From the NCBI GenBank assembly GCA_964450075.1, contig CAYVFA010000003.1, forward strand, positions 1 through 46,367: 46,367 nucleotides of DNA, read 5' to 3'. Position numbers and translations under genes: made by a program. Numbering within the stretch: the first letter of the stretch is position 1; each line of letters opens with the position of its first letter. Below are positions 333-32,869 of this stretch, piece after piece. Below the pieces are notes generated by a model. It worked only from the letters and a program-made list of their open reading frames with translations, had not been told where the DNA came from and made no database searches. The DNA is from an uncultured Smithella sp. Its GTDB lineage: Bacteria > Desulfobacterota > Syntrophia > Syntrophales > Smithellaceae.

Positions 333-593
333 GGATGCATATTTGTTCTCAACTTGAACCTTTCATGCTTTGCTGATCAACTGGTTAATTGTCTAACTAT
401 AGGCTCAGGTTGTGCCCAGCATAGCTTCCTGAAATCAAGCATGTCAATTTTCCGACATTCATGCTACATTTTAAAAGAATATCATCACGTGCGCTCATGA
501 CAGTTTCAGTGTCTGGATGGCGGTCGTGCCGCATAATTCAGGTTATCTTTTTTTGTGGTTCATAATTATTACTACGACGAGGCAGGGGATAAT

Positions 594-5715: not shown

Positions 5716-5766
5716 AACAAACGGCAAAAAGCCGCGACAGAATCAACTGATGACTGTCAATAATGC

Positions 5767-7674: not shown

Positions 7675-7675
7675 C

Positions 7676-9151: not shown

Positions 9152-9255
9152 AAATGGCCGGCATGTTTTTCGTTGACAGGCGTTTCATCGTCACATAAAG
9201 AGTCATCCATCGCAGGGGGGAGGATCTCCCCAATTTTGCAAACAAAGGCATAAGC

Positions 9256-11691: not shown

Positions 11692-11705
11692 AATCTCAAA
11701 GGTTT

Positions 11706-13712: not shown

Positions 13713-13770
13713 CAAAACCGCAAAGCGCGCAGAATCGTAAAACAGAGCATAACCATAACGGGAGATCATC

Positions 13771-15465: not shown

Positions 15466-15507
15466 TGCCTCAGTGTTTGTCCTTTACGGGAAACGGGCGA
15501 AATGATT

Positions 15508-16827
15508 TTATGAAAGGGGCGTCCCATCCAGCATAATGCTTTGCCCCATCATCTCCGGCGTTACCAGAACGACCCCTTGATCACTCACATGGAAACGCGC
15601 GGCGTCTTCAGCAGGGTTTTCACCAATGACTGTATGGTCGGGAATTCGGGTTCCTTTGTCGATAACAGCGCGAGCAATGCGGCAGTTCTTCCCGATATAA
15701 ACGTCGGGCAGCACAACGCTATCCTTCACGATACTGCAGGTTTCAATACGGGTTCCATAAAAAATAACCGAGCGTTTGACACGCGCTCCGGCAATGATGC
15801 TGCCGCCGCTGACCAGTGAATTGATGGCTTCACCGCGCCGGCCTTCATCGTCAAAGACAAACTTCGCCGGTGGAAGCTGTACCTGGTAAGTCCAGATCGG
15901 CCAGTTTTTGTCATAGAGGTTGAGTTCCGGTTTAATGGAACACAATTCCATGTTTGCTTTCCAGTAGGCATCAATGGTGCCGACGTCACGCCAGTAGGCT
16001 ATCTCACCCTTATCGTCGCGATAAGGATAAGCCATTGCGACGCTGTTGTGAATGATCTGGGGAATGATGCTTTTGCCGAAATCGTGGGCGGAGGCTTCAT
16101 CTTTAGCATCGGCAATCAGCGTATCGTACAGGAAACTGGTTGAGAAGACATAAATACCCATGGAAGCGAGGGCTGTATCCGGCATGCCGGGCATGGGTTC
16201 GGGATCCGCCGGTTTCTCGGTAAAGCGTGAGATGCGCATATTTTGATCGACCGACATGACGCCGAAATCACATGCTTCCATGCGGGGCACCTCGATGCAG
16301 GCCACCGTCATATCCGCCTTGGAGTTGACATGCTTCATCAGCATCTTCGAGTAATCCATGGTATAGATGTGATCGCCCCCAAGCACCAGCACATATTGCG
16401 GAGCATGGCGGTGAATGATGTCGATGTTCTGGTACAATGCATCGGCCGTCCCGCGATACCATTCTTTGCTCATGCGCTGCTGGGCCGGAATAATATCGAC
16501 AAACTCACCGATCTCGGCTCGCATAAAATTCCAGGCGTGCTGAAGGTGGCGAATCAGAGAATGAGACTTGTACTGCGTCAAAACACCGATACGACGCAGG
16601 CCGGAGTTAACGCAGTTCGACAGTGTGAAATCGATCATCCGGTATTTGCCGCCGAAGGGGACCGCCGGCTTGGCGCGCCATTTGGTCAGCTCTCCCAAAC
16701 GGGAACCCTCACCGCCTGCCAGAATCAGCACCAGCGTCTGGCGCGTCACCTCGGTTGCAATTTTGGTTTCAACGTAATTATAATGAACCAGAAGATCAGG
16801 GTTTGTTTTATTGCTGCTCGTCATCAT
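15508..16827 (-). CDS. glgC: Glucose-1-phosphate adenylyltransferase (ADP-glucose pyrophosphorylase)
   Basis: [55 protein letters not shown], and a C-terminal left-handed beta-helix region. Confidence 0.93.
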
Positions 16828-17119: not shown

Positions 17120-17228
17120 CTCCCTCGTTATTTAATATTTGTAAATGTGGTTTATCAATAACATTTTTATAAGCAAGCCGTCAATGCGTTTTACTTCTTG
17201 TCATTTCGTTCCGTCCTGTTATAGATCT

Positions 17229-17549
17229 ATGGTTATGAACAAGGAGAAATTTCAATCAGACGAAAATGTCGCCGAAAAGGAGAGGCTGGAGATTAAGGAG
17301 CCTTCACTTTATCGGGTCATCATTCTAAACGATGATTATACCACCATGGAATTTGTCATCCAGGTGTTGGAGACTGTTTTCCACAAATCGCCTGCCGAGG
17401 CCACCCAGATCATGCTGAGCGTGCATAAAAAGGGATCAGGCCTTTGCGGCATTTATACGCGTGAGATTGCCGAAACAAAAGTGGCATTGGTTCATGAAAT
17501 GGCGGCCGATAATCAATTCCCGCTGAAATGTATGATGGAGAAAGAATGA
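17229..17549 (+). CDS. clpS: ATP-dependent Clp protease adaptor ClpS
   Basis: The core [18 protein letters not shown]...F.KS..EA..IML.VH..G....G.Y..EIAETK is the ClpS signature. The start is trimmed from the track ORF (17145) to ATG 17229 or 17235. The stop overlaps the clpA start (ATGA). Confidence 0.88.
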
Positions 17550-19825
17550 TTAATAAAGAGTTGAGTCTGGCGTTGGATGCGATTATCAAAGATGCCAAAA
17601 ACCGCCGGCATGAGTATCTGACGGCCGAGCATATCCTTTATGCGCTCATCCATGACGAGCTGGGGGGCGATATTATAACGGGCTGTGGCGGCAATGTCGG
17701 CAGTATAAAGGAAAGAATCGAGGCATTCTTTACCAAGAACATTACGGTGCTGCCTCCCGGCAAAAGATCCAATCCGGTACCTTCCATTGGATTCCATAGG
17801 GTTATTCAGCGGGCCTTAATCCATGTTCAGTCCGCTGAAAAGTCAGAGGTGGAGGCAGGCGACCTGCTGGCGGCGCTTTTTGAAGAACCCGATTCCTTTG
17901 CTGTACATTTCCTTGAACAGGAAGGCATCTCACGTCTTGATGTGCTCAATTATATATCCCACGGCGACGCAGGTTTTGACGGGGACGACCAAAGCGGAGC
18001 GCCGCTTGCAGACCCGGTGCGCAACGCAGACGAAGGCCAGACAGAACCGCAGCGGCCTGTTGCCAAAGATCCTTTAAAACTTTATACCGTTAACCTGATT
18101 GAAAAAGCTGCCGCGGGTGAGATTGACCCGCTGGTCGGTCGCAAAGATGAGCTGACACGCACCATCCAAGTGCTGTGCCGGCGGCGGAAAAACAATATTG
18201 TGTTTGTCGGCGAACCGGGCGTCGGCAAGACCGCACTCGTTGAGGGTCTTGCGCTGAATATCCACCAAGGCGTAGTTCCTGATCCGATTAAAGACACGAT
18301 CATTTACTCGCTCGACATGGGAGCGCTGCTTGCCGGCACAAAATACCGGGGCGATTTCGAGGCGCGCCTGAAGGCCACGATCAAGGAACTCGAAAAGATT
18401 CCCGGCTGCATCCTTTTCATCGATGAGATTCATACAATTGTCGGAGCAGGAGCGACAAGCGGCGGTTCGATGGATGCGTCGAATATATTGAAGCCCGCGC
18501 TGAATTCCGGAAAATTGCGCTGCATCGGCGCCAGTACATATGAAGAATTTAAAAATCATTTTGACAAAGACCGCGCCCTTTCGAGGCGCTTCCAGAAGAT
18601 CGAAATATTTGAACCCAGCATAGAAGAAACGATTGATATATTAAAAGGTTTGCGTTCCTATTACGAGGATTTCCACGGCGTCGGTTATACAGACGCTGCG
18701 ATCAAGGCTGCGGCCGTTCTCTCTGCAAAATATATCAACGATAAATTCATGCCGGACAAGGCCATTGACGTGATCGACGAGGCAGGTGCGACAAGAAAGC
18801 TGCAACCCTCCGGCGGGAGCAAACCGGTCGTCGGCGTAAAGGAAATCGAACGCATCATCGCCCATATCGCCAAGATTCCTTCCATCAGCGTATCCGCGTC
18901 CGACACGGAAAAATTGAAGGATCTTGAACCGGAACTCAAAGCTTCGGTCTTTGGGCAAGACCTCGCCATTCATTCGCTTGTATCGGCCATTAAGCGATCG
19001 CGCGCAGGACTTGGCGCTCCCGAGAAGCCGATTGGCTCCTTTCTTTTTACGGGGCCTACGGGTGTTGGTAAGACCGAAGTCGCAAAGCAGATGGCATGCG
19101 TGCTCGGGGTGCAATTCACCCGTTTCGACATGAGTGAATATATGGAAAAGCATGCAGTGGCAAGGCTGATCGGGGCGCCTCCGGGCTATGTCGGTTTTGA
19201 CCAGGGCGGCATGCTGACCGATGCGATAAGAAAGCACCCATACTCTGTGCTGCTGCTCGATGAGATCGAAAAAGCACACCCGGATATCTTCAGCATCTTG
19301 CTGCAAGTGATGGATTACGCCACACTGACGGACAACAACGGGAAAAAAGCTGACTTCCGGAATGTCATTCTCATCATGACCTCCAATGCGGGGGCAAAGG
19401 AGATGGACATGGGGACCATCGGATTTGGAGACAGAAAAGACGACGCCAGATCGAAGGGCGGCGATGCGATCAAAAAACTTTTTAATCCGGAATTCAGAAA
19501 CCGTCTGGACGCGATCATCACCTTCAACCCGCTCACCTCCGAAGTCATGAAAATGGTCGTCGACAAGTTTATCCATGACTTGACAAGACAACTGGGCGGC
19601 AAAAAAGTAAAAATGGACTTAACCAGTGCTGCCAGAGACTGGCTGGCCGAAAAGGGGTACGATGACAAATTCGGCGCAAGGCCTCTGGCCAGACTTATTC
19701 AGGCCGAGATCAAGGATGCGCTCGCAGAAGAGCTGCTCTTCGGCAGATTGAAAAAGGGCGGCAGCGTAAAGATTGACCTCCATCAAGGACGGCTCGAATT
19801 CGAGTATCGTCAGTCCTCACTATGA
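17546..19825 (+). CDS. clpA: ATP-dependent Clp protease ATP-binding subunit ClpA
   Basis: Clp N-domain, two AAA+ modules (Walker [10 protein letters not shown] and GPTGVGKTE; Walker B ILFIDEIH and [11 protein letters not shown]), no ClpB middle coiled-coil, about 760 aa. Confidence 0.93.
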
Positions 19826-20481
19826 CCGTTTTTAGATTGACCCAAAAACTTGTTTTTCCACAACCCGAGCTGGCCGACGACGACGGCCTGTTGGCAATTG
19901 GCGGCGACCTTAGCGTTGACCGTCTATTGCTTGCCTATTCCATGGGGATCTTCCCGTGGTATTCAGACAAGAATCCCATCCTCTGGTGGTCGCCTGACCC
20001 AAGACTCATCTTATTTCCCCTGGAACTGAAGGTCTCACGAAGTCTGCGGCAGACCATGAAGAAAGGCATTTACCGCGTCACCACCAATATGGCCTTTGAA
20101 GCAGTGATCAGAAGTTGCGCCACAATCACCAGAAAGGGAGAAAAAGGCACCTGGATCACCGATGCGATGATTAAGGCATATATCCGGCTGCATAAGGCCG
20201 GTTATGCCCATTCTGTCGAGGCATGGGACGGCGTTGAGCTTGCCGGTGGTTTCTATGGCGTTATGATGGGCAAGGCTTTTTTCGGAGAATCGATGTTTGC
20301 AAAAAAGAGCGACGCATCAAAAGTCGCTTTTGCGTCATACGCGGCTGATCTTGCCGCAAAGGGGTGTGAACTGATCGACTGCCAGGTTTCAACAGAGCAT
20401 CTGAAAAGATTCGGCGCGAGGGAAATCTCACGCGCCAAGTTTATGATGCATCTTAAACAAAGCACAAAATGCCATGACTAG
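19822..20481 (+). CDS. aat: Leucyl/phenylalanyl-tRNA--protein transferase
   Basis: FP.P.LAD.DGLLA.GGDLS...LL.AY..GIFPWY....PILWWSPDPR, HSVE.W....L.GG.YG and GESMF. The start overlaps the clpA stop (ATGA). Confidence 0.9.
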   Translation: MTVFRLTQKLVFPQPELADDDGLLAIGGDLSVDRLLLAYSMGIFPWYSDKNPILWWSPDPRLILFPLELKVSRSLRQTMKKGIYRVTTNMAFEAVIRSCATITRKGEKGTWITDAMIKAYIRLHKAGYAHSVEAWDGVELAGGFYGVMMGKAFFGESMFAKKSDASKVAFASYAADLAAKGCELIDCQVSTEHLKRFGAREISRAKFMMHLKQSTKCHD

Positions 20482-20598: not shown

Positions 20599-22152
20599 AT
20601 GAAAAGGATTATTGCCGTTTTGCTGGTATGGTTTATTTTTATTGCAGGCGTCGCTTTTGCACAAGACGAAATCACCAAACCAAGCGATGAAAATCTTAAA
20701 AAAATATTGGCTGATTTCGATCAGTATGCCGCTAAAGCAAGGGCCGACTGGAAAATTCCCGGCATGGCCATCGGAATTGTCCAGGATGGCAAGCTTATAT
20801 TTGCCAGGGGCTTTGGTGTTAAGACCGTGGGCGGCAACGATCCCGTTACCCCAAAAACGGTTTTCCAGATCGGTTCAACCTCCAAAGCATTTACAGCGAC
20901 GCTTGCCGCGATGATGGTGGATGAAGGGAAATTAAAATGGGACGATAAGGTGATCGATCATCTGTCCGATTTCAGAATGTATGACCCCTGGGTGACCCGG
21001 GAATTTCAAGTTTTCGATTTAATGTCTCAACACAGCGGGATGCCGGCCTATGCCGCAGATACCCTTTATTTAACAGGCTTTGACCGCTCGTATATTAAAC
21101 GGGCGATCCGCCACATTAAACCGGTGACCAGCTTCCGCGCTCAGTATGCTTATCAAAACGGCCTGTGGCTTGTGGCGGCGGACCTTGTTGAAAAATATTC
21201 AGGCAAAACCTGGGAGCAGACGCTTCAGGAGCGCCTTTTCAATCCTCTGGGAATGTCGAATTCCTCTGCGGATAAGCAGTCTTTTCTGCTGGCCAAAGAT
21301 GTTTCGTCATTGCATGCGCTGGAAAACGATCAGGTCGTCGCTTTGCCGAAGAATTGGGAATTTATGGACTGGAGCTATACAGCCGGCCCGGCAGGCGCCA
21401 TCAATTCCAATATTGTCGATATGGCAAAGTGGCTCTCGTTTCAGATGAATAACGGCAAGGTAAGCGATAAACAATTAGTGTCTCCGTTTAACATGCAGGT
21501 TCTCCGTTCACCGAAAACCATCGTCAATTTAGCCAGCGATGTACACAAAAACATATTTTATTGTTTAGGCTGGTTATACATGGAGCATTCGCCGTACCCG
21601 GTGATTTGGCATAATGGCGGAACGTCTATGAAAACCATGGTGGCCTATGTTCCGGAACAAAAAATCGGGATCGTCATCCTTTCCAATTATGTGACGCAGC
21701 TGCCCGAGTTGCTGACCTTCAGGTTTTTCGACCAGTATGCGGGAAAACCTGCCAAGGATTTGAGCGCGGAAGCATTGGCTGAGCTGGAAAGAATGAAGCA
21801 GGAAGAAAAAACCAGAAAACCCGTGCCGCCCAAAAAATCTACGGCTGCCATGCCACTGGACAAATATGCCGGTGATTATTACAATGATGTTTACGACAGG
21901 ATAAACATTTCTATCGTGAATGGGAAATTGACGGTTATGATGGGACCCAAAAAAGTCAAAATGGCACTTCATCATCGGGATAAAGATATTTTTGCACTGC
22001 AATGGCTGGGTGTCGGTCTTGGGTCTGAGTCCGGATTTGCAGCTTTTCAGGTTGACCCGCAAGGCAAAGTAACAGGGGTGACGCTTGATTTTCTAAACCA
22101 GGATGATGATTTGGGCGTCTTTAAGCGGATAGAAGATTCTGCCCAAAGATGA
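20599..22152 (+). CDS. Secreted serine hydrolase (class C beta-lactamase / penicillin-binding-protein family) with a C-terminal beta-domain
   Basis: Signal peptide MKRIIAVLLVWFIFIAGVAFA-QDE. S-x-x-K motif in FQIGSTSKAFTA, a YxN-like YAYQNG, and a late HNGGT block. Confidence 0.8.
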   Translation: MKRIIAVLLVWFIFIAGVAFAQDEITKPSDENLKKILADFDQYAAKARADWKIPGMAIGIVQDGKLIFARGFGVKTVGGNDPVTPKTVFQIGSTSKAFTATLAAMMVDEGKLKWDDKVIDHLSDFRMYDPWVTREFQVFDLMSQHSGMPAYAADTLYLTGFDRSYIKRAIRHIKPVTSFRAQYAYQNGLWLVAADLVEKYSGKTWEQTLQERLFNPLGMSNSSADKQSFLLAKDVSSLHALENDQVVALPKNWEFMDWSYTAGPAGAINSNIVDMAKWLSFQMNNGKVSDKQLVSPFNMQVLRSPKTIVNLASDVHKNIFYCLGWLYMEHSPYPVIWHNGGTSMKTMVAYVPEQKIGIVILSNYVTQLPELLTFRFFDQYAGKPAKDLSAEALAELERMKQEEKTRKPVPPKKSTAAMPLDKYAGDYYNDVYDRINISIVNGKLTVMMGPKKVKMALHHRDKDIFALQWLGVGLGSESGFAAFQVDPQGKVTGVTLDFLNQDDDLGVFKRIEDSAQR

Positions 22153-22201
22153 GATTCGTCGGCAACAAGGAATACTGAAGATTGGCAAGATGTGCTTTCC
22201 G

Positions 22202-24529
22202 TTAAGCATATTGACGGTGCTGGATGGATTCTATATATCCGACGGTTCCCGTGGTAATCTGGGCGGCATTGGCTTCATCCGTATCCAGATGCATATCCAG
22301 TCGATATTTAGGATTGACACGAACCAGCACGTCGCCAAAAATCAGTTCTCTCACACCCTTGACTTTGACCATGACCACGTCTTGATCCCGCAGACCGAGG
22401 TTTAAAGCTTCTTCGGGAGAGATGTGGATATGGCGCTTGGCGCAGATCACCCCTTTGTCCAGTTTTACCGTGCCTGATTCCCCTTCAAGAATGATTCCCG
22501 GAGTTCCCTCTGTGTCGCCGGAGTTCCGAATGGGCGGGTCAATGCCCAGTTTGAAGCGCTCGGTGCAGGAGATTTCCACCTGAGACTCTTTACGTGCGGG
22601 ACCCAAAATCCGGACACGTTCAATTTTCCCTTTCGGTCCAATCAGATTAACCGTTTCGATGGCTGCAAACTGATCCGGCTGGCTCAGCTCGGAACGCGGG
22701 GTCATGGTTTTCCCCACGCCAAAAAGTATCTCAAAATGCTCCTGTGTCAAATGAACATGATGCGCCGAGGTGGATATGGCAATCGGCCGCGAACGGAATT
22801 TCTCAATGTCGGATTTGGAACGCGTGCGGCCCAGCGCGTGAACCGTTTCCCGGGCAATCATTTTTTCTTCATCCGCCGGAACAACCAGAATTCTAGTTTT
22901 GGAGGCGGGCTCTGAAATGTCGGTTATCCGGCCGCGCTGTGCTTTCATTTTGGTGTTAATGTCATCAAACACCATAATGCCAATTGGTTGCATGCCATGA
23001 CAGATTCGGGCACGTATGTCGATGGAATTTTCGCCAATGCCGCCGGTGAAGATCAGCGCGTCGAGTCCACCCATGACTGCCAAGTAGGCGCCGATATATT
23101 TTCTGATCCGATAGCAGAAAGCACTGATCGCCTTTTCACATCGGACATCTCCACATTCCGCCTCCTGCAAAAGCGTGCGCATGTCGTTGCTCTTGCCGGA
23201 AATTCCCAACAGGCCGCTTTTCTTGTTGAGCATCTGATCAATCTGGTCGGGCGTCATGCCCCGCTGGCGCAGCAAATGCAGGATCACACCCGGATCAATG
23301 TCTCCGGCGCGCGTGCCCATGATCAGGCCTTCCAGGGGCGTCATGCCCATGCTGGTATCGACACTTCTGCCGTGATCAATTGCGCAAACCGAAGCGCCGC
23401 TTCCCAAATGACAGGAAATAATCTTAAGCTCACCCAGCGGGCGTTTCAGAAAAGTCGCCGCGCTCAGTGCGACAAACTTGTGATTGGTGCCGTGAAAGCC
23501 ATAGCGGCGAATTTGTTCTTCGTCGCTGACGGCGTAGGGCAGCGCATAAGTGTAGGCATCTTCCGGCATGCCCACGTGAAAGGAGGTGTCAAAGACAGCA
23601 ACCTGCGGAACGTCGGGAATCAGTTTTTGCATCAACTCGATTCCCGCCAGATTGAAGGGATTATGAAGTGGCGCCAGAGGAATCAGATCTTTAATGGCTG
23701 CGGATACGTCAGCGCTTACCATAATGGAATTGGGAAATTGCACACCGCCATGGACGACCCGGTGCCCGACCGCTCTGATTTCTCCCAGATCGTTCATGCC
23801 TGTATAAGCCTTGTCGGTGATCGTGGAAACCATCAGGGTAAAGGCATTTTCAACAGCCGCGACATCCGGGACGGGGAACTCTTTTTTCGCATCGGGTGTT
23901 CTGATGACATGGGAGGCGTCTCCTGAACCGATTTTTTCGATGAGTCCTTCAATGACCGGCGCGGTTGTTGTTGTATCAAACAACGTATATTTCAGGGATG
24001 AACTGCCACAGTTCACGGTCAGGATCTTCATGGGCTCATCAACGGAAGAAAAATTCAGATCGTAAGGATCATCATTTTCCTTATAAACATTTTTCAAACG
24101 TTTTCGAGCATCATCCTGTTCATTGCGCAAGAGCCTTTTGGTTACGAGGCGGGTGAATTTGACAAGAGTCTGGGGATTTCTGGCAATCATTCCAGAAAAT
24201 ATTTCACGTGGAATTTTGATAATTCTGGCGGCACGAAAGGCTACAACGTCCAGAACTGCAGGCTCTCCTGTTAACAGGGCCATTTCACCAAATATTTGTT
24301 CACGCTCCAGTGTGGCAACGGTTCGCTGACTGCCGTCATCCTCTGTGAGCAGGACTTCTACTTCACCGTCATAAACCACCCACAGGAAACGGCCGGGCTC
24401 TCCCCGTTTGATAATTGGGCTGCCATCCGGAAAATCAATCCGTTGTGCGTTTTCGGCAATGAGATGAATGTCCGCGTCCGGCAAATCAGCAAAAATATCA
24501 ATTTTTTTCAAAAACAAGGGAAGTTCCAT
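22202..24529 (-). CDS. Tri-domain fusion: cyclic-nucleotide-binding-like domain, acetate/propionate kinase, and PduL-type phosphate acyltransferase
   Basis: aa 1-125 form a cNMP-binding fold (IF..L......L........F..G..I...GE......V..G.V.V ... FGEMALL). aa 167-567 form acetate kinase (KILTVNCGSSSLKYTLFD, GHRVVHGG, FDT.FH..MP, YGFHGT.H, HLG.GAS, ILVVPADEE.MIA). aa 582-775 form PduL (SAHHVHLTQEHFE.LFG, LSQP.QFAA.ETV.L.GPKG, RHIHISPEEA, DTDEANAA). There are no in-frame stops. Confidence 0.88.
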   Translation of the reverse strand: MELPLFLKKIDIFADLPDADIHLIAENAQRIDFPDGSPIIKRGEPGRFLWVVYDGEVEVLLTEDDGSQRTVATLEREQIFGEMALLTGEPAVLDVVAFRAARIIKIPREIFSGMIARNPQTLVKFTRLVTKRLLRNEQDDARKRLKNVYKENDDPYDLNFSSVDEPMKILTVNCGSSSLKYTLFDTTTTAPVIEGLIEKIGSGDASHVIRTPDAKKEFPVPDVAAVENAFTLMVSTITDKAYTGMNDLGEIRAVGHRVVHGGVQFPNSIMVSADVSAAIKDLIPLAPLHNPFNLAGIELMQKLIPDVPQVAVFDTSFHVGMPEDAYTYALPYAVSDEEQIRRYGFHGTNHKFVALSAATFLKRPLGELKIISCHLGSGASVCAIDHGRSVDTSMGMTPLEGLIMGTRAGDIDPGVILHLLRQRGMTPDQIDQMLNKKSGLLGISGKSNDMRTLLQEAECGDVRCEKAISAFCYRIRKYIGAYLAVMGGLDALIFTGGIGENSIDIRARICHGMQPIGIMVFDDINTKMKAQRGRITDISEPASKTRILVVPADEEKMIARETVHALGRTRSKSDIEKFRSRPIAISTSAHHVHLTQEHFEILFGVGKTMTPRSELSQPDQFAAIETVNLIGPKGKIERVRILGPARKESQVEISCTERFKLGIDPPIRNSGDTEGTPGIILEGESGTVKLDKGVICAKRHIHISPEEALNLGLRDQDVVMVKVKGVRELIFGDVLVRVNPKYRLDMHLDTDEANAAQITTGTVGYIESIQHRQYA

Positions 24530-24760
24530 TTTGACTCACTCCTTCCGCCAGCGAAAGCGTTGGTAACTAAAGATAATAAAAAAGCAACAAGACAAGTAAA
24601 TCTTATGAATAACTTCATCCCCTCCTGAAAGCAGTAATAAGATGATAGGGTGGTTGTTAATAGCATAATCAGGGTTGTTCTGCATCTCTTTTTGTGTCAG
24701 AAGATGTCGGCAGATGCGGCTTACTTGTGCATCTTAATGGACACAATACCCAAAATATCC

Positions 24761-24789
24761 TTGACAGACATGATCGTGTTCCCTATAGT
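24761..24789 (+). promoter_or_regulatory. Sigma70-type promoter for the chemosensory operon
   Basis: TTGACA (24761-24766), a 17 nt spacer, then TATAGT (24784-24789). AAGGA follows about 10 nt before ATG 24815. Confidence 0.55.
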
Positions 24790-24814
24790 TTGCCAACAAA
24801 AAGGACAGTTTGCC

Positions 24815-27019
24815 ATGATAAAACCAACACTCACACTCAAAAGAAAGATTATCGGCCTTGCCATACTGGCTGCGGTTTTACCAGTCGTGGTGATGATGAT
24901 TCTCATGGGATCGTTTCAATCCTCCGTCTCCAAACTGGCCTCGAAAGAGTTGAGCGATGTCGCCATGACGAATATGGCCCAGATTGCCAGGGACGTCTAT
25001 GGGCTTTGCGAAACCTCCAACGATCTGATTCAGAAAAAAATCAACAACGGTTTGAATGTGGCCAGGAACATCCTGAAGCAGCACAAAGGCATAGAAGCAG
25101 GAAAAGAGACGGTTGTCTGGGATGCCGTTAATCAATTGACCAAGCAAACGCAGAAAGTCGAGCTGCCCAAACTGATGGCGGGTGGCGTCTGGCTCGGCCA
25201 GAACCGCAACCCCGCGGTCCCGACACCCATTGTCGATGAAGTGAAACAACTGGTCGGCATCACCTGCACCATCTTTCAGCGGATGAACGAAAACGGCGAC
25301 ATGCTACGCGTGGCAACCAATGTTCAGGACGTGGAAAACCGCAGGGCGATCGGCACCTATATCCCGAACCTCCTGCCGGACGGCACGGCAAATCCGGTTA
25401 CAGATGCGGTTATGAAAGGCCAGCCTTATCGCGGGCTCGCCTATGTGGTCAACACCTGGTACCTGACTGCCTATGAACCCATCAAGGACAGGACGGGAAA
25501 AGTTATCGGCATGCTCTATGTCGGAGAGAGATTGGAAGCCGTTTCCTCGCTCCGGAAGGCCATTCAGAGCATGAAAGTGGGAAAGCTGGGGTATGTGGGT
25601 GTTGTCGGCGGCAAGGGTGAACACAGGGGCCGGTACATTATTTCAAAAGACGGCTCCCGTGACGGCGAAAATATATGGGATCAAAAGGATGTCCATGGCA
25701 ACACAACGATCAAGACCCTGATCGCCACTGCCCTGAAACAGCCCAAAGGCGAGTCTTTCTATCATGAATACATCTGGCAGAATCCCGGCGAGCCGGAACC
25801 CCGGAAAAAGATTTCTTCCGTTATATATTTTGAACCGTTTGACTGGGTCATAGTGGCGGGAACTTATGAGGATGACTTCTTCAGACCCGTAGGTCACGTC
25901 AATGAAATGATCAAATCCCTTTTTCTGAAAGTCGTTGTGACGGGGGGGCTGATCATCCTGCTGTCGGTGTTCCTGGCTGTATTTCTGGCACGTCGCCTGA
26001 CACAGCCGCTGGAGCTGACCACCAGCCTGGCCCAGAAAATCGCCACAGGAGATATCCAGCAGACTCGCGAGGAATTGGCGGGAGCTGAATCGGTGAGGAT
26101 TATTCAGTCGGGAGACGAAACGGGAGAACTTCTGCGGACATTCCAGACCATGACGGATAATCTGGATTCCCTGATCGGCCAGGTCCACAGGTCCGGGATT
26201 CAGGTGACGACCTCAGCAACTGAGATTGCCGCTTCGGCGCGTGAACTGGAAGCAACCGTGGCCCAGCAGGCGGCGTCCACAACGGAAGTGACAGCCACCA
26301 GCCGTGAAATATCCGCCACGGCAGACGATCTTGCACAAACCATGGACGGGGTTAATGTTTCGCTCAATGAAACCATCGGCATGGCTGAATCAGGCCGTGA
26401 TGACCTCACCCATATGGAAGCCGCCATGCGTGAACTGGTCAAAGCCACGACATCGATTTCTTCCAAGCTGGCCGTCATCAACGACCGGGCGAACAAAATC
26501 TCCCATGTGGTCACCACGATCAACAAGATTTCCGATCAAACCAATTTGCTGTCTTTGAATGCTGCCATCGAGGCGGAAAAAGCCGGCGAATTCGGACGGG
26601 GCTTTTCTGTTGTCGCCCGTGAGATCAGCCGTCTGGCCGATCAAACGGCCATCGCTACACAGGACATTCAACAGGTGGTGGCTGAAATGCAGACTTCCGT
26701 TTCAACCGGTGTGATGGAGATGGACAAGTTTACCGACGAGGTGAGGCGCGGTGTGGAAACCGTCTCTACCCAGAGCGGCCAGCTTGCCCGGATCATCGAT
26801 CAGGTGCGCATTCACGGTCCGCAGTTTACAGCCGTGAAGGACGGCATGTACGGCCAGTCCCAGGGAGCACAGCAGATCAGTGAAGCCATGGGTCAATTAT
26901 CCATGGCGGCGGGGCAGACCAAGGAATCGCTGCATGAATTTAAACTGGCGACGGAGCAGCTCAACGAGGCCATAGGCGGGCTTCAGTCAGAGGTCTCCCG
27001 GTTCAAAATCAGCTCCTGA
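24815..27019 (+). CDS. Methyl-accepting chemotaxis protein (WspA position) with a periplasmic Cache-type sensor, HAMP and an MCP signalling domain
   Basis: TM1 IIGLAILAAVLPVVVMMILM. A Cache_3-Cache_2-like block (RVATNV...RAIGTYIP...G.PY.G.AYVVN.WYLTAYEPI.D..GKVIGMLYVG). TM2, HAMP, and the tip NLLSLNAAIEAEKAGEFGRGFSVVAREI. The start is set at ATG 24815, downstream of the promoter; the track ORF begins at 24650. Confidence 0.9.
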   Translation: MIKPTLTLKRKIIGLAILAAVLPVVVMMILMGSFQSSVSKLASKELSDVAMTNMAQIARDVYGLCETSNDLIQKKINNGLNVARNILKQHKGIEAGKETVVWDAVNQLTKQTQKVELPKLMAGGVWLGQNRNPAVPTPIVDEVKQLVGITCTIFQRMNENGDMLRVATNVQDVENRRAIGTYIPNLLPDGTANPVTDAVMKGQPYRGLAYVVNTWYLTAYEPIKDRTGKVIGMLYVGERLEAVSSLRKAIQSMKVGKLGYVGVVGGKGEHRGRYIISKDGSRDGENIWDQKDVHGNTTIKTLIATALKQPKGESFYHEYIWQNPGEPEPRKKISSVIYFEPFDWVIVAGTYEDDFFRPVGHVNEMIKSLFLKVVVTGGLIILLSVFLAVFLARRLTQPLELTTSLAQKIATGDIQQTREELAGAESVRIIQSGDETGELLRTFQTMTDNLDSLIGQVHRSGIQVTTSATEIAASARELEATVAQQAASTTEVTATSREISATADDLAQTMDGVNVSLNETIGMAESGRDDLTHMEAAMRELVKATTSISSKLAVINDRANKISHVVTTINKISDQTNLLSLNAAIEAEKAGEFGRGFSVVAREISRLADQTAIATQDIQQVVAEMQTSVSTGVMEMDKFTDEVRRGVETVSTQSGQLARIIDQVRIHGPQFTAVKDGMYGQSQGAQQISEAMGQLSMAAGQTKESLHEFKLATEQLNEAIGGLQSEVSRFKISS

Positions 27020-27032
27020 TCGGATAACCATC

Positions 27033-27497
27033 ATGTTGCTACTTCAGTTTCAAGCCGGTACCGATCGTTACGGTCTCGATATTGGGCAGATTATCGAAGT
27101 GTCCTCTCTTGTATCGCTGCGGGCCATTCCTCACGCGCCCCCGGAAGTTGCGGGCACCTTCAACTATCGGGGCACCCTCACGCCGGTTGTCGATCTAACA
27201 GCTTTACTGACCTCGGTTCCTTCACGCCTCCGGATGAGCACGCGCATCATTTTGGTAAACTATGTGGGAGAGGACGGACGTTCTCACATTCTGGGTCTGC
27301 TGGCGGAAGCGGTAACGGAAATGGTTCAATGCAAAAAAGAAGACCTTCAGCAGCCGGTTGTGTCGGTCAGCGGTTCAGCCTACCTGGGAGACATGATTTA
27401 CGATGAGCAGGGCTCCCTTCAGGTTTTGGATATGGAGCGGCTTTTGACCCGCGACCTGCTCTTTACTCTTTTTCCGCCGGAGGTCAGTAGCGGATGA
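27033..27497 (+). CDS. cheW: CheW-like coupling protein (WspB position)
   Basis: A single 154 aa CheW domain, with ...RYGLD...I.EV........IP.AP..V.G..N.RG...PV.DL. Confidence 0.85.
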   Translation: MLLLQFQAGTDRYGLDIGQIIEVSSLVSLRAIPHAPPEVAGTFNYRGTLTPVVDLTALLTSVPSRLRMSTRIILVNYVGEDGRSHILGLLAEAVTEMVQCKKEDLQQPVVSVSGSAYLGDMIYDEQGSLQVLDMERLLTRDLLFTLFPPEVSSG

Positions 27498-28762
27498 ATA
27501 CGCTTCCGGCCATTTCACGATTCCTGACGGTTAACCTTGGCATGGCTGCGGATGCTCTCGGCCAAGGGGCTGTCAGCCGGGCCATTACCGCGGCCATGCA
27601 TCAGGAAGGCATCTCTGATCAAAAGGCGTATGAACGTTTGTTTGTTTCATCCGAAGCCGTACGGCAAAGACTAACGGATGCCGTCGTTGTCGGGGAAACC
27701 TGGTTTTTTCGAGATCGGGGTCCATTCACCTGTCTTGCCTCCCATGTTCGAGAATTACGTGAGACAAAGCTTCTGAAAATTCTGTCTGCTCCCTGTGCAA
27801 CAGGAGAGGAGCCTTATTCCATTGCCATGACACTGCTTGCCGCAGGTTTGCCGCCCGCGGCCTTTGTCGTCGATGGGGTGGACATCAGTATCGAAGCCCT
27901 GAATAAGGCCCGGCTTGCCTGTTATGGCAGCGGCTCATTCCGGGGACACATCGGAGCGGATGTCGCCCGGTATTTTCTGGAAACACCTCAGGGACGAAAA
28001 GTATCGGATCAGGTGCGCGGGCAGGTCACCTTTCATCATGACAATCTGGTGAAACCGGACAGTCTTACAGGGCAAGGGCCTTACGACATCATCTTTTGCA
28101 GAAATCTGCTTATTTACCTGACGCCCGAAGCGCGCCGCAGCGTCTTCGAGCGACTGGACCATCTTCTTCTGCCCGGAGGCCTGCTTTTTACCGGTCACAC
28201 GGAAACGATTTTCTGGCATCAGCAGGGCTATCTTCCCCGCAAGTGGGATCGGGCTTTTGCTTTAACAAAACCCGTTTTGCAGCCGATACAGAAAAATACT
28301 GCTAACGCAAGACTGAAATCTGCGTCGCCTCCAGATGCAAAACAGCAGGTAAAGACCTTGACGGGGCACAGCCAGGCATCCGGCAACAAACCGCCGGTCA
28401 AGCCTGTCAGCGCAGATGAGGAACCGCTCCCGGACGGGCAGATTCAGGAAGCCAGGCTTCTGGCCGATCGGGGGGACCTGGAGGGCGCTTTGCGTCTTTG
28501 TCAGGAATATACACGGAAGGTTGGACCGTCCGTTGAAGCATATTGTCTCATGGGTGTCATCCAGATGGCCAGACACGACATGAACGCTGCCCTGGATTTT
28601 TTTCTGAAAGCCATCTATCTTGATCCCGGACACTATGAAAGCCTCATCCATGCCAGTCTTCTCTATCGTCAAAAAGGGGAGAAACAAAAAGAGGCTCTTT
28701 ATCGCGAATGGGCTGAAAGAAAAGCGGGTACTGAAGCAAAGACGGATGAGAAGAGAGCTTAA
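27494..28762 (+). CDS. cheR: CheR-type MCP methyltransferase with a C-terminal TPR region (WspC position)
   Basis: ETWFFRD, ILSAPCATGEEPYSIAM, the SAM-binding region and IFCRNLLIYL. A Pro/Lys-rich linker is followed by TPR-like repeats (EAYCLMGVIQMARHDMNAALDFFLKAIYLDPGHYESL). The start overlaps the cheW stop. Confidence 0.88.
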   Translation: MNTLPAISRFLTVNLGMAADALGQGAVSRAITAAMHQEGISDQKAYERLFVSSEAVRQRLTDAVVVGETWFFRDRGPFTCLASHVRELRETKLLKILSAPCATGEEPYSIAMTLLAAGLPPAAFVVDGVDISIEALNKARLACYGSGSFRGHIGADVARYFLETPQGRKVSDQVRGQVTFHHDNLVKPDSLTGQGPYDIIFCRNLLIYLTPEARRSVFERLDHLLLPGGLLFTGHTETIFWHQQGYLPRKWDRAFALTKPVLQPIQKNTANARLKSASPPDAKQQVKTLTGHSQASGNKPPVKPVSADEEPLPDGQIQEARLLADRGDLEGALRLCQEYTRKVGPSVEAYCLMGVIQMARHDMNAALDFFLKAIYLDPGHYESLIHASLLYRQKGEKQKEALYREWAERKAGTEAKTDEKRA

Positions 28763-28776
28763 CAAAACTTCCCGGT

Positions 28777-29451
28777 ATGGATAGAAATATGGAAAGCGCA
28801 AATAAATATTGCTGGAAAGAAAAGGGAATCTTCGGCGACGGGTCGTGTCTGGAACTGGCCCGTCTGATCCATTGCCGACGTTGTCCCGTCTATGCCACTG
28901 CGGGAAGGCGGCATCTCGATCGGGAATTACCGGTAAAGTATCTGGAGGATCGGGCAAAAGTCATGGCCATGCCCAAGGAGATTGCCAGAATGGGAACTTT
29001 GTCCGTCATGGTCTTTCGCCTGGCGGGTGAGCGGTTTGCCATCAAAACCATTTTTTTTCAGGAAGCAGCCGAGCCGTCCCCGATTCATACGCTGCCGCTC
29101 AAAGTCAACCGTATTTTCCGGGGAATTGCCAACATTAATGGAGAACTTTTGCTTTGCGTTTCCATCGCGGATCTTCTCGAATTGACGATGGAAGAGGCTG
29201 GTGACGAACTGCCTGTGGTTCAGGCCAGAATGCTGGTGGTTGAAAGGGAAGGGCAGCGTTTCGTATTTCCAGTAGAACAGATTCTGGGCGTTCATCGAGT
29301 TGCCCCGGAGGATCTGGGAGAAGTCCCGGCTACGTTGTCCCGTTCGGCAAAATCCCTGACGCGCGGTATTTTTCAACTGGATGGCCGTCATGTGGGACTT
29401 CTGGACGAAGAGCGGCTTTTTCCAGCCATGACGAGGAGCCTTAATCAATGA
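28777..29451 (+). CDS. cheW: CheW-like protein with an N-terminal Cys-rich extension (WspD position)
   Basis: The N-terminus has C12-x11-C24-x7-H32-C33-x2-C36 (YCWKEKGIFGDGSCLELARLIHCRRCPVY). A CheW domain follows (LSVMVFRLAGERFAI ... GIANINGELL). Confidence 0.85.
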   Translation: MDRNMESANKYCWKEKGIFGDGSCLELARLIHCRRCPVYATAGRRHLDRELPVKYLEDRAKVMAMPKEIARMGTLSVMVFRLAGERFAIKTIFFQEAAEPSPIHTLPLKVNRIFRGIANINGELLLCVSIADLLELTMEEAGDELPVVQARMLVVEREGQRFVFPVEQILGVHRVAPEDLGEVPATLSRSAKSLTRGIFQLDGRHVGLLDEERLFPAMTRSLNQ

Positions 29452-31832
29452 CCGCCGCATCTGCCAATACCCCCATTGATCCTCTCATGCTGGATTTGTT
29501 CCGCGTAGAGCTGGAAACCAACACCCGGACGCTGGAGTCCGGGCTGGTGACGGCAGAACGGGACCAAACACCGGAAAGAATTGAACCGCTTATGCGGGCC
29601 GCTCACTCCATCAAGGGGGCTGCCCGGATTGTTGGCTTAAATACGGCCGTTACCCTAGCGCATGCCATGGAGGACGTGCTTTCAGCGGCTCAACACGGGA
29701 AACGATCCCTGACGCCCGATGCGGTGGACCGGCTCTTGAAGGGAAACGATTTTTTTGCAGCTCTTGCCAGCCTGGATATCAGTGAACTGCCGGCTGCTCT
29801 GGAAAAAGGGACTGATGAAATTCAGGCAATGGCGGATCAACTGCGGGCATTCCTGTCCGCGCCGCCGGAAACCGCCCAAGCGGTGATTCCCGAAACAACA
29901 ACCGTCCCGGCGGAGCCGAAACCTGTCGCCCCCATCACCCAAACAGCGCCGGTGCTCTCCACTGCCGTTACCCCTGCCGAGCTTTCTGAAAAACCTGCTT
30001 TGCAACCCCCGACCGATTCTTCCAGTCAGGACGGGACGTGTGCGGGGCCGACAACCGCGCCGGCTGTTCGCTCCCGACGCACACAAGATAAAGGCGAAGG
30101 CGGTCTGGTGCGCGTCAGAGCGGAAAACATGAATCGTCTCATGGCCTTGGCTGGAGAATGTCTTGTCCAGGCCCAATCCGTCAAATCAGTCTATCAAAGC
30201 CTGTTGACTTTAAAGAAGGGCATTGCAGAGCTGGAGAAGCCCCTGCAACTCTCGCTGGAATCGCAAGTGAAAAACGGGGAGGGTGTCCAGGATGCAGGCA
30301 TTCAGGAAAGTCTGCTTCGCGTTGCTGACGTTCAGCAAACGGTTTCACAGGATATTGTGCGGTTTGAACGTTTCTCCCGCCGCCTAGAGCATCTGGCCCA
30401 TCGTCTGTATAACGAAGTGATCAGCAGCCGGATGGTGCCTTTTTCCGATGGTCTGCACGGTTTTTCCCGAATGGTCAGAGACCTGGCCAGGGAAACGGGA
30501 AAACAGGTCAATTTCGAAATTGCCGGGTCCGCTACGCCGGTTGATCGGGACATCCTGGAGAGATTGGAAGCGCCTCTGTCCCACCTGATTCGCAATGCCA
30601 TCGATCATGGCATGGAAACCCCTTCGGAAAGACAGCAGGCAGGCAAACCCGCAGAAGGAACCATCATTCTGGAAGCCCGGCACGTAGCCGGAATGCTGAA
30701 CATCACGCTTGCCGATGACGGTCGGGGAATCAATCCGGAAGACCTCCGGGGCAAGGTGGTCGAAAAGGGGTATGTCACACCCGAAATGGCTGGGAGCCTG
30801 ACCCGTGCTGAACTGTTCGAATTCCTGTTTCTGCCGGGATTCTCGACCGCCAAAGCCGTAACGGAAATTTCCGGTCGGGGCGTCGGTCTGGATGTTGTTT
30901 TCAATATGGCCCATGAAGTGGGTGGTACCGTGCGCGTTGATGCCGAAGCCGGTCGGGGCGCCCGTTTTCATCTCCAGTTGCCGCTGACCCTGTCGGTTTT
31001 ACGAACCCTCCTGCTTTCGATTGCCGATGAGCCCTATGCGCTGCCACTATCGCGCATTGATCGGGTTTTGTCTCTGACCCACACTGATATCAAAGAAATT
31101 GAAGATCGCCCATACTGTACTCTGGATGGAGAGCATGTGGGCATCCTTGACGCCCGTCAGCTTTTTCAACTGCCACCTGTATCCGTCCCGGCAGGACGAT
31201 TTTCAGTGGTTATCATCAGCGACCGGCTGAATCGCTATGGCCTGGTCGTTGACCATGTTATCGGTGAAGAAAACCTTGTTGTGCGCCCCATCGACAGCCG
31301 TCTGGGAAAAATTCCCAACGTCAGCGCCGGCGCTATTCTGGACGATGGTTCTCCGGTCGTCATCTTCGATGTGGACGACCTGGTCCGGTCCATTCACCAG
31401 CTATTGACGACCGGCAAGCTCCAGAAAATCGGTAAGGGCAGCCAGGCCTTGCTGGCAGGAAAGAAGCGGGTCCTGATTGTCGATGATTCTTTGACTGTGC
31501 GCGAAGTGGAACGCAGGCTTCTGGATCATGCGGGCTACGAAGTCACAACCGCCGTGGACGGCGTGGACGGCTGGAATACCTTAAAAACACAAGCCTTTGA
31601 TTTACTCATTTCCGACGTCGATATGCCCCGCATGAATGGTATCGATCTGGTCCGCACCGTCAAGACCGATCCGCTCCTGAAGGAAATGCCCGTCATGATC
31701 GTCTCGTACAAGGACCGCGAAGAGGATCGCTTGAGAGGTTTGGAAGCGGGAGCCAACTATTACCTGACGAAAGGCAGCTTTCATGACGAAAGCCTGCTGA
31801 CCGCCGTACGCGACCTGATCGGAGGCCCCTGA
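29448..31832 (+). CDS. cheA: Hybrid CheA histidine kinase with a C-terminal receiver (WspE position)
   Basis: Hpt (RAAHSIKGAARIVGL) and a long Pro/Thr-rich linker without a P2 domain. Then dimerisation, HATPase (HLIRNAIDHG, DDGRGI, GRGVGLD), a CheW-like P5 domain, and REC (VLIVDDS ... ISDVDMPRMNG ... YLTK). Confidence 0.92.
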   Translation: MTAASANTPIDPLMLDLFRVELETNTRTLESGLVTAERDQTPERIEPLMRAAHSIKGAARIVGLNTAVTLAHAMEDVLSAAQHGKRSLTPDAVDRLLKGNDFFAALASLDISELPAALEKGTDEIQAMADQLRAFLSAPPETAQAVIPETTTVPAEPKPVAPITQTAPVLSTAVTPAELSEKPALQPPTDSSSQDGTCAGPTTAPAVRSRRTQDKGEGGLVRVRAENMNRLMALAGECLVQAQSVKSVYQSLLTLKKGIAELEKPLQLSLESQVKNGEGVQDAGIQESLLRVADVQQTVSQDIVRFERFSRRLEHLAHRLYNEVISSRMVPFSDGLHGFSRMVRDLARETGKQVNFEIAGSATPVDRDILERLEAPLSHLIRNAIDHGMETPSERQQAGKPAEGTIILEARHVAGMLNITLADDGRGINPEDLRGKVVEKGYVTPEMAGSLTRAELFEFLFLPGFSTAKAVTEISGRGVGLDVVFNMAHEVGGTVRVDAEAGRGARFHLQLPLTLSVLRTLLLSIADEPYALPLSRIDRVLSLTHTDIKEIEDRPYCTLDGEHVGILDARQLFQLPPVSVPAGRFSVVIISDRLNRYGLVVDHVIGEENLVVRPIDSRLGKIPNVSAGAILDDGSPVVIFDVDDLVRSIHQLLTTGKLQKIGKGSQALLAGKKRVLIVDDSLTVREVERRLLDHAGYEVTTAVDGVDGWNTLKTQAFDLLISDVDMPRMNGIDLVRTVKTDPLLKEMPVMIVSYKDREEDRLRGLEAGANYYLTKGSFHDESLLTAVRDLIGGP

Positions 31833-32869
31833 TGATCCTGAAAATTGCCGTCGCGCATCATGACGCTATTGCTCTGAAAACAATGCAACAGATCATTACG
31901 CAGGAAACGGACTACAAGATCGTCTGGTCAACTGACAACGCGGGTGACGTGATCCGGAAATGCCGGCGCAACCCCCCGGACATGCTGCTGGTTGATCTGG
32001 CGCTGGCCAACATGAATGGCGACAAGCTGATTTGTGACGTCATGGGTGAAACCCCCTGTCCCATCCTGATTCTATCCGATTCCATCGTGAAACAGGCGGG
32101 AAAAGTTTTTGAAGCGATGGGATGCGGTGCGCTGGATGCCATTGCAACGCCGGTCATCCATCCCAACGGTCTTATGGAAGGCGCGGATGCCCTGCACAAG
32201 AAAATAACAACGATGGCCAAACTTCTGGGAAACGTGACGCAACCGGCGCCAGTGGCTGCACCCGGCACAAGGTCACCTGCGGATCACCTGCCACCTCTGG
32301 TTGCCATCGGTTCTTCAACGGGAGGCCCCAAGGCGCTGGCGAAAATCCTGTCGGGATTTCCTGAAGGTCTGGAAGCGTCCTTCATAATCTGCCAGCACGT
32401 TGATCTCCAGTTTGCGCAGGGTTTGGCTCAATGGCTGGATTCTCAAACACCGCTAAAAGTGGTCCTTGCCCGGGACGGGATGAAGCCCGAAACCGGTGTT
32501 GTGTTGGTTGCGGGGACTAACGATCACCTGGTGCTGGGAGAAGATCGTATTTTCCACTACACAGCCGACCCGCGGGATTACCCTTATCGTCCATCCGTCA
32601 ACACTTTCTTTGAAAGTTTGAAGAAATACTGGCCCCGGAAGGATGTGGCAGTTCTCCTGACGGGCATGGGACGGGACGGCGGGGAAGGCCTGACGGCATT
32701 GCGCAAGGCGGGCTGGCATACGATTGTTCAGGATGAAAAAACGTCCATTGTTTATGGCATGCCGGCGGCGGCAGTGGAACTGGGGGGCGCGGTGGAAATT
32801 CTGCCTCTGGAAATGATTGCCGGAGCAATATTTAAAAAAATAACGGTCAGTAAAGGAATTGTTCTATGA
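31832..32869 (+). CDS. cheB: CheB-type methylesterase with an N-terminal receiver (WspF position)
   Basis: Catalytic blocks AIGSSTGGP (Ser), ICQHV (His) and LTGMGRDG (Asp). The receiver has the acceptor context MLLVDLALANMNG. The start overlaps the cheA stop by 1 nt. Confidence 0.9.
   Translation: MILKIAVAHHDAIALKTMQQIITQETDYKIVWSTDNAGDVIRKCRRNPPDMLLVDLALANMNGDKLICDVMGETPCPILILSDSIVKQAGKVFEAMGCGALDAIATPVIHPNGLMEGADALHKKITTMAKLLGNVTQPAPVAAPGTRSPADHLPPLVAIGSSTGGPKALAKILSGFPEGLEASFIICQHVDLQFAQGLAQWLDSQTPLKVVLARDGMKPETGVVLVAGTNDHLVLGEDRIFHYTADPRDYPYRPSVNTFFESLKKYWPRKDVAVLLTGMGRDGGEGLTALRKAGWHTIVQDEKTSIVYGMPAAAVELGGAVEILPLEMIAGAIFKKITVSKGIVL

Follow-up and report, generated by a model that had tools for sequence, protein, structure and literature searches.

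The contig CAYVFA010000003.1 of an uncultured Smithella sp. (assembly GCA_964450075.1) was analysed over its positions 1 to 46,367, hereafter the window. It carries a gene for a polypeptide in which three domains follow one another: a domain with the cyclic-nucleotide-binding (CNB) fold, an acetate kinase (Ack) and a PduL-type phosphotransacylase. A sequence-only reading of the window had noticed this fusion. We confirm the observation; the interpretation first given to it is partly supported. The protein is probably a free cytosolic, bifunctional enzyme of substrate-level phosphorylation, composed of PduL and Ack and gated by the N-terminal CNB-fold sensor, for which a non-cyclic ligand is the likelier one.

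The gene forms a single uninterrupted open reading frame (ORF) of 775 codons at 22202–24529 on the minus strand, starting with ATG. The ORF listing, together with Pfam and NCBIfam, bears out the length and the module order of the sequence-only reading, whose module coordinates are also arithmetically right (aa 167–567 = 22829–24031; aa 582–775 = 22205–22786). The locus comprises the following features.

22202..24529, minus strand: complete ORF, stop codon at 22202–22204 (ORF listing of the window).
24539..24546, minus strand: Shine–Dalgarno sequence GGAAGGAG, 9 nt 5′ of the ATG (read from the sequence).
24573..24600, minus strand: sigma-70-like promoter match TTTACT-16-TATTAT (consensus match only).
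24074..24529, minus strand: CNB-like sensor domain, aa 1–152 (PF00027, phmmer, AlphaFold2, Foldseek).
24239..24295, minus strand: non-canonical phosphate-binding cassette (PBC), aa 79–97, IFGEMALLTGEPAVLDVVA (HMMER alignment to PKG).
24044..24070, minus strand: motif D154-P-Y-D-L-N-F-S-S162 after the C-helix, in the linker to Ack (homologue conservation).
22829..24031, minus strand: acetate/propionate kinase domain, aa 167–567 (PF00871, 1TUU alignment, Foldseek).
22784..22828, minus strand: Ack–PduL linker of 15 aa (aa 568–582), with a short predicted helix at aa 572–580 (sequence and AlphaFold2).
22205..22783, minus strand: PduL-type phosphotransacylase domain, aa 583–775 (PF06130, 5CUO alignment).

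The three Pfam domains are mutually non-overlapping and essentially full length. Profile scans, which the sequence-only reading had proposed as a check on its three modules, returned all of them well above their cut-offs: cNMP_binding (PF00027) over aa 32–118 (E = 2e-18; 66.5 bits, cut-off 27.5), Acetate_kinase (PF00871) over aa 168–560 with profile positions 1–392 of 392 (E = 8e-143; 476 bits, cut-off 22) and PTAC/PduL (PF06130) over aa 585–758 with profile positions 2–175 of 176 (E = 9e-75; 250.8 bits, cut-off 25). The PF06130 match spans both β-barrel repeats of PduL. Among the NCBIfam models, TIGR00016 (ackA) matched the middle part of the protein (473.5 bits, cut-off 293.4) and PRK15070/NF011652 (phosphate propanoyltransferase) its C-terminal part (251 bits, cut-off 209). 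A full-length AlphaFold2 model built with 76 homologues had a mean pLDDT of 80 and a pTM of 0.60, with each of the three domains individually confident.

A long ORF of this kind could arise as an artefact, if a sequencing or assembly error joined two or three adjacent genes, and the sequence-only reading had advised checking both linkers for a missed stop or frameshift. A search of 5.8 billion protein clusters returned a best 120 homologue clusters at 58–83% identity to the window protein, drawn from four independent sources (NCBI, JGI, ENA and Logan assemblies). All three Pfam domains are present in 119 of these, at 771–789 aa and mostly at 773–777 aa; the one that falls short, P0093, is truncated at 691 aa and lies on a contig of 2.2 kb. 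The three parts are also contiguous in one frame in at least 22 species-representative genomes, and both linkers hold invariant residues in the homologue alignment. Because length and architecture are identical in independent assemblies, the fusion is not an assembly artefact; a frameshift or mis-assembly of separate genes is ruled out, and the chance that the ORF is spurious is negligible. Where the best clusters carry a name, it is only ‘acetate/propionate family kinase’, from metagenome-assembled genomes (MAGs) of Smithella, Smithellaceae, Syntrophaceae or Syntrophales.

Both enzyme modules are full, as the sequence-only reading had held: the profiles run end to end, and the catalytic and metal-binding residues are kept in the alignments, bar N211 of Ack. 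The Ack domain aligns end to end with Ack of Methanosarcina thermophila (1TUU; E = 8e-120), and Foldseek matched the AlphaFold2 model to the two-domain ASKHA fold of 1g99 (TMt 0.90, E = 8e-42). In M. thermophila numbering, N7, S10–S12, K14, R91, H123, D148, H180, R241, R285 and E384 are kept, as are the acetate pocket (V93, L122, F179 and P232) and the adenosine pocket (G331–I332). N211 is the sole checked residue that is changed; it is a serine here and in 84 of the 120 homologues, and an asparagine in 34. The checked residues are nearly all invariant or near-invariant across this set (V93 is Val in 102, Ala in 10 and Thr in 8). The acetate-type pocket suggests acetate as the first substrate and propionate as the second, and the open G331–I332 pocket presumably points to ATP/ADP rather than pyrophosphate (PPi).

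The PduL domain aligns with PduL of Rhodopseudomonas palustris (5CUO; E = 2e-46), and the AlphaFold2 model matched PduL in Foldseek at TMt 0.69. All six metal ligands are kept (H48, H50, E109, H157, H159 and H204 in R. palustris numbering), as are the pocket residues S45 and A154. The metal ligands do not vary among the 23 family members compared across phyla, and PduL is the best conserved of the three domains in the family. On these alignments, both enzyme domains look catalytically competent.

PduL and Ack would carry out consecutive steps, a point of the sequence-only reading that our results support. The C-terminal PduL domain would convert acetyl-CoA, possibly also propionyl-CoA, and inorganic phosphate to acyl-phosphate and CoA; the adjacent Ack would then use the acyl-phosphate to phosphorylate ADP, which yields ATP together with the free acid. 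The CNB-fold domain would act as an allosteric sensor whose signal reaches the kinase by way of the long C-helix and the invariant segment DPYDLNFSS. The enzymatic reading of Ack and PduL is well supported by sequence alignments and structure models; the enzymatic activity itself, its direction in vivo, the channelling, any allosteric effect and the ligand are inferred.

The overall reaction from acyl-CoA to ATP would be reversible, and the enzyme might mainly run backwards, spending ATP to turn acetate or propionate into the CoA ester, for assimilation or to activate substrates, while the sensor stops futile ATP use. This alternative bears on direction alone and can be combined with either view of the sensor; we consider it rather unlikely. 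Converting acetyl-CoA into acetate by way of acetyl-phosphate is the chief ATP-yielding step in many anaerobes. The closest relatives of the window protein belong to Smithella and Smithellaceae, syntrophs in which this conversion is expected to be the main source of ATP. The reverse direction gains from the reversibility of both reactions, Methanosarcina Pta–Ack being known to activate acetate (PMC4784909), and from the presence of the family in non-fermentative lineages (among them Rhodocyclaceae, Sulfurisoma and magnetotactic Nitrospirota). Active CoA-ester traffic is suggested, in addition, by an acetyl-CoA hydrolase/transferase-family gene at 35021–36328. No sequence feature sets the direction.

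The sequence-only reading had described the N-terminal module as a cyclic-nucleotide-binding-like domain. The fold holds up. The best phmmer matches of the sensor in the PDB were PKG, PKA and CRP; Foldseek matched its model to Mycobacterium tuberculosis CRP (3mzh; E = 6e-11) and further to PKA-R-type CNB domains, and the NCBIfam model NF058543 (‘acetyltransferase Pat’) matched aa 10–133 (E = 1.3e-8). In the predicted layout, a β-barrel with the PBC helix (aa 1–118) is followed by a long C-helix (aa 119–151/152); pLDDT is ~80–92 over the barrel (aa 1–130), and along the last part of the C-helix it declines, first to 73 and then to 52. The CRP, FtrB and NtcA models of NCBIfam matched the CNB part only, far below their cut-offs. 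No helix-turn-helix domain was matched by Pfam after the sensor C-helix; Ack follows there, unlike in CRP/FNR transcription factors.

The cassette of this domain departs from the canonical one at a specific point. In the HMMER alignment, the window cassette FGEMALLTGEPAVLD stands opposite PKG FGERALLYDEPRSAT, which puts A91 in the slot of the Arg for the cyclic phosphate and V92–L93 in that of Ser/Thr–Ala. The canonical Arg–Ser/Thr–Ala is thus replaced by A91-V92-L93. Position 91 is Ala in 100 of the 120 homologues, Thr in 12, Val in 4 and otherwise Ser, Gly or Ile, with Arg in none, and the canonical Arg is likewise found in 0 of 34 three-domain representatives that span the whole family. The cassette reads GEPA in the Syntrophales, GEP[TS] in Nitrospirota, Desulfarculaceae, Chloroflexota and Planctomycetota, and GD[RK]T, with a basic residue one position early, in Proteobacteria, Binatia and Acidobacteriota. 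As controls, we took ten CNB domains with a near-identical cassette pattern from the survey of GTDB genomes described below; their fusion partners include Ser/Thr kinases, MscS channels, sigma-54 activators and patatins. Nine of these ten unrelated proteins read ...TGEPR[ST]A, so the loss of the Arg is specific to the Ack–PduL family. This family-specific loss is a new finding.

The pocket appears otherwise intact. G81 and E82 are present in 119 of the 120 close homologues (the remaining one has a gap), and in 34 and 33 of the 34 family representatives, respectively. R132 of the C-helix is conserved in 30 of 34 across phyla. Across phyla, no CNB positions are better conserved than G81-E82-M83...T87-G88 and R132, in a domain that is only ~30% identical overall; the conservation of G81/E82 and R132 argues for a working pocket and lid rather than a decayed one. 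The cassette has lost the Arg–Ser/Thr pair for the cyclic phosphate and kept the ribose-contacting Gly–Glu, a combination that makes a nucleoside, a nucleotide or another metabolite a likelier effector than cAMP or cGMP.

The sequence-only reading had implied a different model, in which the sensor is a genuine receptor for cAMP or cGMP (or a cyclic dinucleotide) and places the ATP-yielding branch under second-messenger control. It can draw on the cNMP_binding match above cut-off, on the cGMP- and cAMP-dependent kinase domains and CRP as best PDB relatives, on the retained Gly–Glu of the PBC and on the Arg/Lys one position earlier in the clade of Proteobacteria, Binatia and Acidobacteriota. Nevertheless, we find it quite improbable. 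The canonical Arg and Ser/Thr–Ala are replaced in every member examined (0/120 and 0/34 retain them), whereas the nearest CNB domains outside the family keep Arg–Ser/Thr–Ala in 9 of 10. With the canonical Arg missing throughout the family, canonical binding of cyclic nucleotides falls away from the earlier claim, and cAMP and cGMP are doubtful effectors of the sensor. In PKA and CAP, loss of the PBC Arg generally cuts cyclic-nucleotide affinity by orders of magnitude.

A precedent exists among eukaryotes: after the same loss, Trypanosoma brucei PKA-R is independent of cyclic nucleotides and takes nucleosides as ligands in place of cAMP (PMC10959531). Foldseek also listed this PKA-R structure among its matches to the window model. 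As in the trypanosomatid protein, the PBC Arg has given way to a small or polar residue and the next Ala to Val, while the ribose-binding Gly–Glu is kept. The parallel is incomplete, because PKA-R has a Glu at A202 that clashes with the cyclic phosphate, whereas the window family has Ala or Ser at the equivalent position; PKA-R is also eukaryotic and serves another output.

The CNB-like domain might instead be free of ligand and act as a dimerisation or scaffold module whose C-helix arranges Ack and PduL dimers into a higher-order assembly. The predicted 33-residue C-helix (aa 119–151) resembles the dimerisation helices of the CRP family, the cassette is non-canonical, and the CNB domain is the least conserved of the three (29–81% identity). 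Ack is oligomeric. PduL is oligomeric too (Erbilgin et al. 2016). A mere scaffold, however, would have no need for a specific, family-wide substitution within an otherwise intact cassette, and conservation of G81-E82-M83...T87-G88 and R132 against such a divergent background is the pattern of a ligand site. We therefore regard a ligand-free scaffold as unlikely.

Four observations weigh against a gating sensor with a non-cyclic ligand. R47, in the β2–β3 loop, is kept in 119 of the 120 close homologues, the last one having a gap there, and could replace the lost Arg by contacting the phosphate, which would favour a cyclic-nucleotide receptor. With Ala or Ser in place of the Glu of T. brucei PKA-R, a cyclic phosphate is not positively excluded. 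The full-length model has a pTM of only 0.60, with the linker at aa 148–165 poorly defined, and establishes no interdomain interface. Finally, some Ack–PduL proteins have no CNB domain at all, so the sensor is dispensable for the chemistry.

The segment that joins the sensor to the kinase is unusually constant. D154, P155, Y156, D157, L158 and S162, which follow the C-helix, are the same in all 120 homologues, and DPYxL is retained in most of the distant family members. When aa 1–166 were modelled alone, residues 157–166 were predicted as coil with pLDDT below 50, and the block 151–160 had a mean of 49. One 624-aa Ack–PduL protein without a CNB domain, P0125 (L081:3001–4875), starts with DPYQL. 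No CNB ORF lies 5′ of its gene, where a divergent gene is immediately upstream, and P0125 has probably lost its sensor secondarily. The gene adjoins a divergent CdhD-like gene and an acyl-CoA dehydrogenase gene. We also considered DPYDLNF as an intrinsic ligand that plugs the degenerate pocket, as in KCNH channels; this is unsupported, given the predicted disorder and the motif in P0125 without a CNB domain. More likely, the motif is part of the kinase side, where we infer that it packs on the kinase and relays movement of the C-helix.

The sequence-only reading had been unable to assign the added domain to any characterised enzyme. The exact three-domain order is common in databases. At least 119 clusters at 90% identity have the three-domain architecture. 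We surveyed one genome per GTDB species with an alignment of aa 1–166, then ran tblastn with the separate domains and extracted the ORFs, and found intact genes for CNB–Ack–PduL proteins in at least 22 species representatives of ~7 phyla. The carriers are Smithella/Syntrophaceae/Syntrophales, Desulfarculaceae, Ca. Magnetominusculus and Magnetocorallium (Nitrospirota), Dehalococcoidales, Planctomycetota, Ca. Binatia, Acidobacteriota, Rhodospirillaceae, Rhodocyclaceae, a gammaproteobacterium and the cultured Sulfurisoma sediminicola BSN1. The architecture is thus that of a widespread but unstudied family, not a rarity. The point on the added domain stands: our literature search found nothing on the three-domain protein or its sensor domain, no biochemical characterisation of Ack–PduL or CNB–Ack–PduL proteins, and only a one-sentence mention of Ack–PduL fusions from 2016.

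An exhaustive HMMER search of 1.84 billion representatives at 50% identity yielded ~13 full three-domain clusters, about a dozen Ack–PduL two-domain clusters and a few CNB–Ack proteins. Three of the last kind (P0131, P0144 and P0147; 570–580 aa) end directly after the kinase without PduL and are either complete genes or cut at contig ends. In a crude neighbour-joining tree of Ack domains, drawn without support values, all 34 three-domain Acks fall in one split of 48 leaves, which lies within a larger split holding 11 of 12 Ack–PduL fusions. This nesting is compatible with an Ack–PduL fusion that came first and a CNB domain gained later.

Outside the Syntrophales, many members have lost core catalytic residues of Ack, and their PHOSPHATE-1 motif NxGSSSxK is degenerate (L013, L015, L027, L029, L032 and L043; P0122, P0123, P0127–P0130, P0134 and P0145). 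R285 is changed to His, G331 to Asp, Gln or Arg, E384 to Asp or Thr and, in L013, R241 to Glu. The cultured Sulfurisoma sediminicola BSN1 is one of the members with a degenerate kinase. All six PduL metal ligands are still invariant in these members. A degenerate kinase beside a fully conserved PduL, seen in several lineages, is the second finding of this analysis, and these members may be PduL enzymes with a pseudokinase.

Fusions of Ack and PduL may already be known, the sequence-only reading had cautioned, and this is so. In one sentence, Erbilgin et al. (2016; PMC4784909) noted the PduL signature in multidomain proteins, which mostly bear the annotation Ack and are devoid of encapsulation peptides, and proposed that a PduL–Ack fusion stands in for Pta and channels substrate. 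Like these two-domain fusions, the window protein carries a full PduL behind its Ack, without an encapsulation peptide or a bacterial microcompartment context. Unlike them, it adds a 152-aa CNB-fold domain and the invariant DPYDLNFSS linker, whereas most two-domain proteins begin directly at the Ack motif ‘MxILxxNxGSSS’. With the microcompartment PduL enzymes (Salmonella; R. palustris 5CUO), it shares the fold, the six metal ligands and the S45/A154 acyl pocket, at 44% identity to 5CUO. It differs in that its PduL is fused behind a kinase rather than standing alone, with neither encapsulation peptide nor shell genes. Compared with M. thermophila Ack (1G99/1TUY) and TdcD/PduW, the catalytic residues and the acetate pocket are kept, at 48% identity to 1G99; the Ser at N211 and the fusions at both termini set it apart from M. 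thermophila Ack.

Two further systems carry regulatory domains at a comparable place. Mycobacterial Pat is a cAMP-regulated lysine acetyltransferase whose N-terminal CNB domain is an allosteric switch on an acetyl-CoA-using GNAT. The window protein likewise has a CNB domain N-terminal to an acetyl-CoA-using enzyme, but Pat has the canonical cAMP cassette, whereas the window sensor is without the Arg and its output would be a kinase/phosphotransacylase pair. Class II Pta of E. coli and Salmonella makes acetyl-phosphate from acetyl-CoA and has an N-terminal regulatory domain, so that in both proteins (in ours, as proposed) the acetyl-CoA to acetyl-phosphate step bears an N-terminal allosteric domain. 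Their catalytic folds (PTA_PTB versus PduL) and regulatory folds are unrelated, and Pta is not fused to a kinase.

Within the window, the gene appears to be monocistronic. A beta-lactamase-family gene (20599–22152, plus strand) converges on it, and a chemotaxis-type operon that begins at 24650 (plus strand) diverges from it. No shell or vertex protein (PF00936/PF03319) was matched in any scanned ORF of the window, as the sequence-only reading had noted, and PduL has no N-terminal encapsulation peptide, the domain being internal and behind Ack. On both grounds, association with a microcompartment is ruled out. All-versus-all BLAST of four genes on each side at 19 related loci and the window gave no conserved operon partner, no neighbour cluster being common to more than two loci. 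An Rfam E-value scan of 22000–24900 returned just a sub-threshold snoRNA match, and a riboswitch or other RNA element was rejected there.

The operon at 24650–34089 (plus strand) encodes a Cache3–Cache2 methyl-accepting chemotaxis protein (MCP), CheW, CheR–TPR, CheW, a CheA–CheW–receiver hybrid, CheB and a response regulator–PP2C/SpoIIE phosphatase, which suggests a chemosensory pathway with a non-motility output. The MCP neighbour is common to one related locus only (L003). The acetyl-CoA hydrolase/transferase-family gene mentioned above lies on the minus strand, ~10 kb from the Ack–PduL gene, and its product could compete for the same acetyl-CoA pool by CoA transfer instead of ATP formation.

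The remainder of the window holds other recognisable sets. A complete glycogen metabolism cluster at 4243–16827 comprises 4-α-glucanotransferase, branching enzyme, glycogen synthase, glycogen phosphorylase, an α-amylase-family enzyme and phosphoglucomutase, with glucose-1-phosphate adenylyltransferase on the minus strand. Because ORFs 5767–7674 and 7367–9151 overlap by ~300 nt, glycogen synthase probably starts further downstream. At 17145–20481 (plus strand), clpS, clpA and aat (leucyl/phenylalanyl-tRNA-protein transferase) stand in a row as a complete N-degron pathway set. The gene at 555–4178 (plus strand) encodes a hybrid histidine kinase of 1207 aa that has five PAS domains and a receiver, and just upstream of it a weak integrase-core fragment (rve_3; E = 3e-4, below the Pfam cut-off) lies at the contig edge (114–332, plus strand).

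A single Smithella-type polypeptide thus has PduL in place of Pta, fused to Ack and joined to a sensor. Syntrophus aciditrophicus, which has neither Pta nor Ack, relies on Acs with PPi (James et al. 2016; PMC4992975), so the Smithella-type solution differs within the Syntrophales. This suggests a third, directly regulated solution for substrate-level phosphorylation in syntrophs. Pathway surveys of MAGs based on Pta will miss the enzyme, because its annotation says kinase only.

The specific, family-wide loss of the PBC Arg in an otherwise intact cassette makes this bacterial CNB domain a clean case in which ligand re-specification can be tested. Tentatively, and with less confidence than in the general reading, one may go further: the CNB domain might be re-tuned to a non-cyclic metabolite (for example a nucleoside, an adenine nucleotide, some form of CoA or an acyl-phosphate) and gate a channelled acyl-CoA-to-ATP machine, the kinase of several lineages being a pseudokinase that solely regulates PduL. 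If true, such a sensor would be the first bacterial parallel to the trypanosomatid switch to nucleosides instead of cAMP, and the protein the first allosterically gated fusion of Ack and a phosphotransacylase. It would then be a valve that decides when acetyl-CoA becomes ATP in syntrophs living near the thermodynamic limit.

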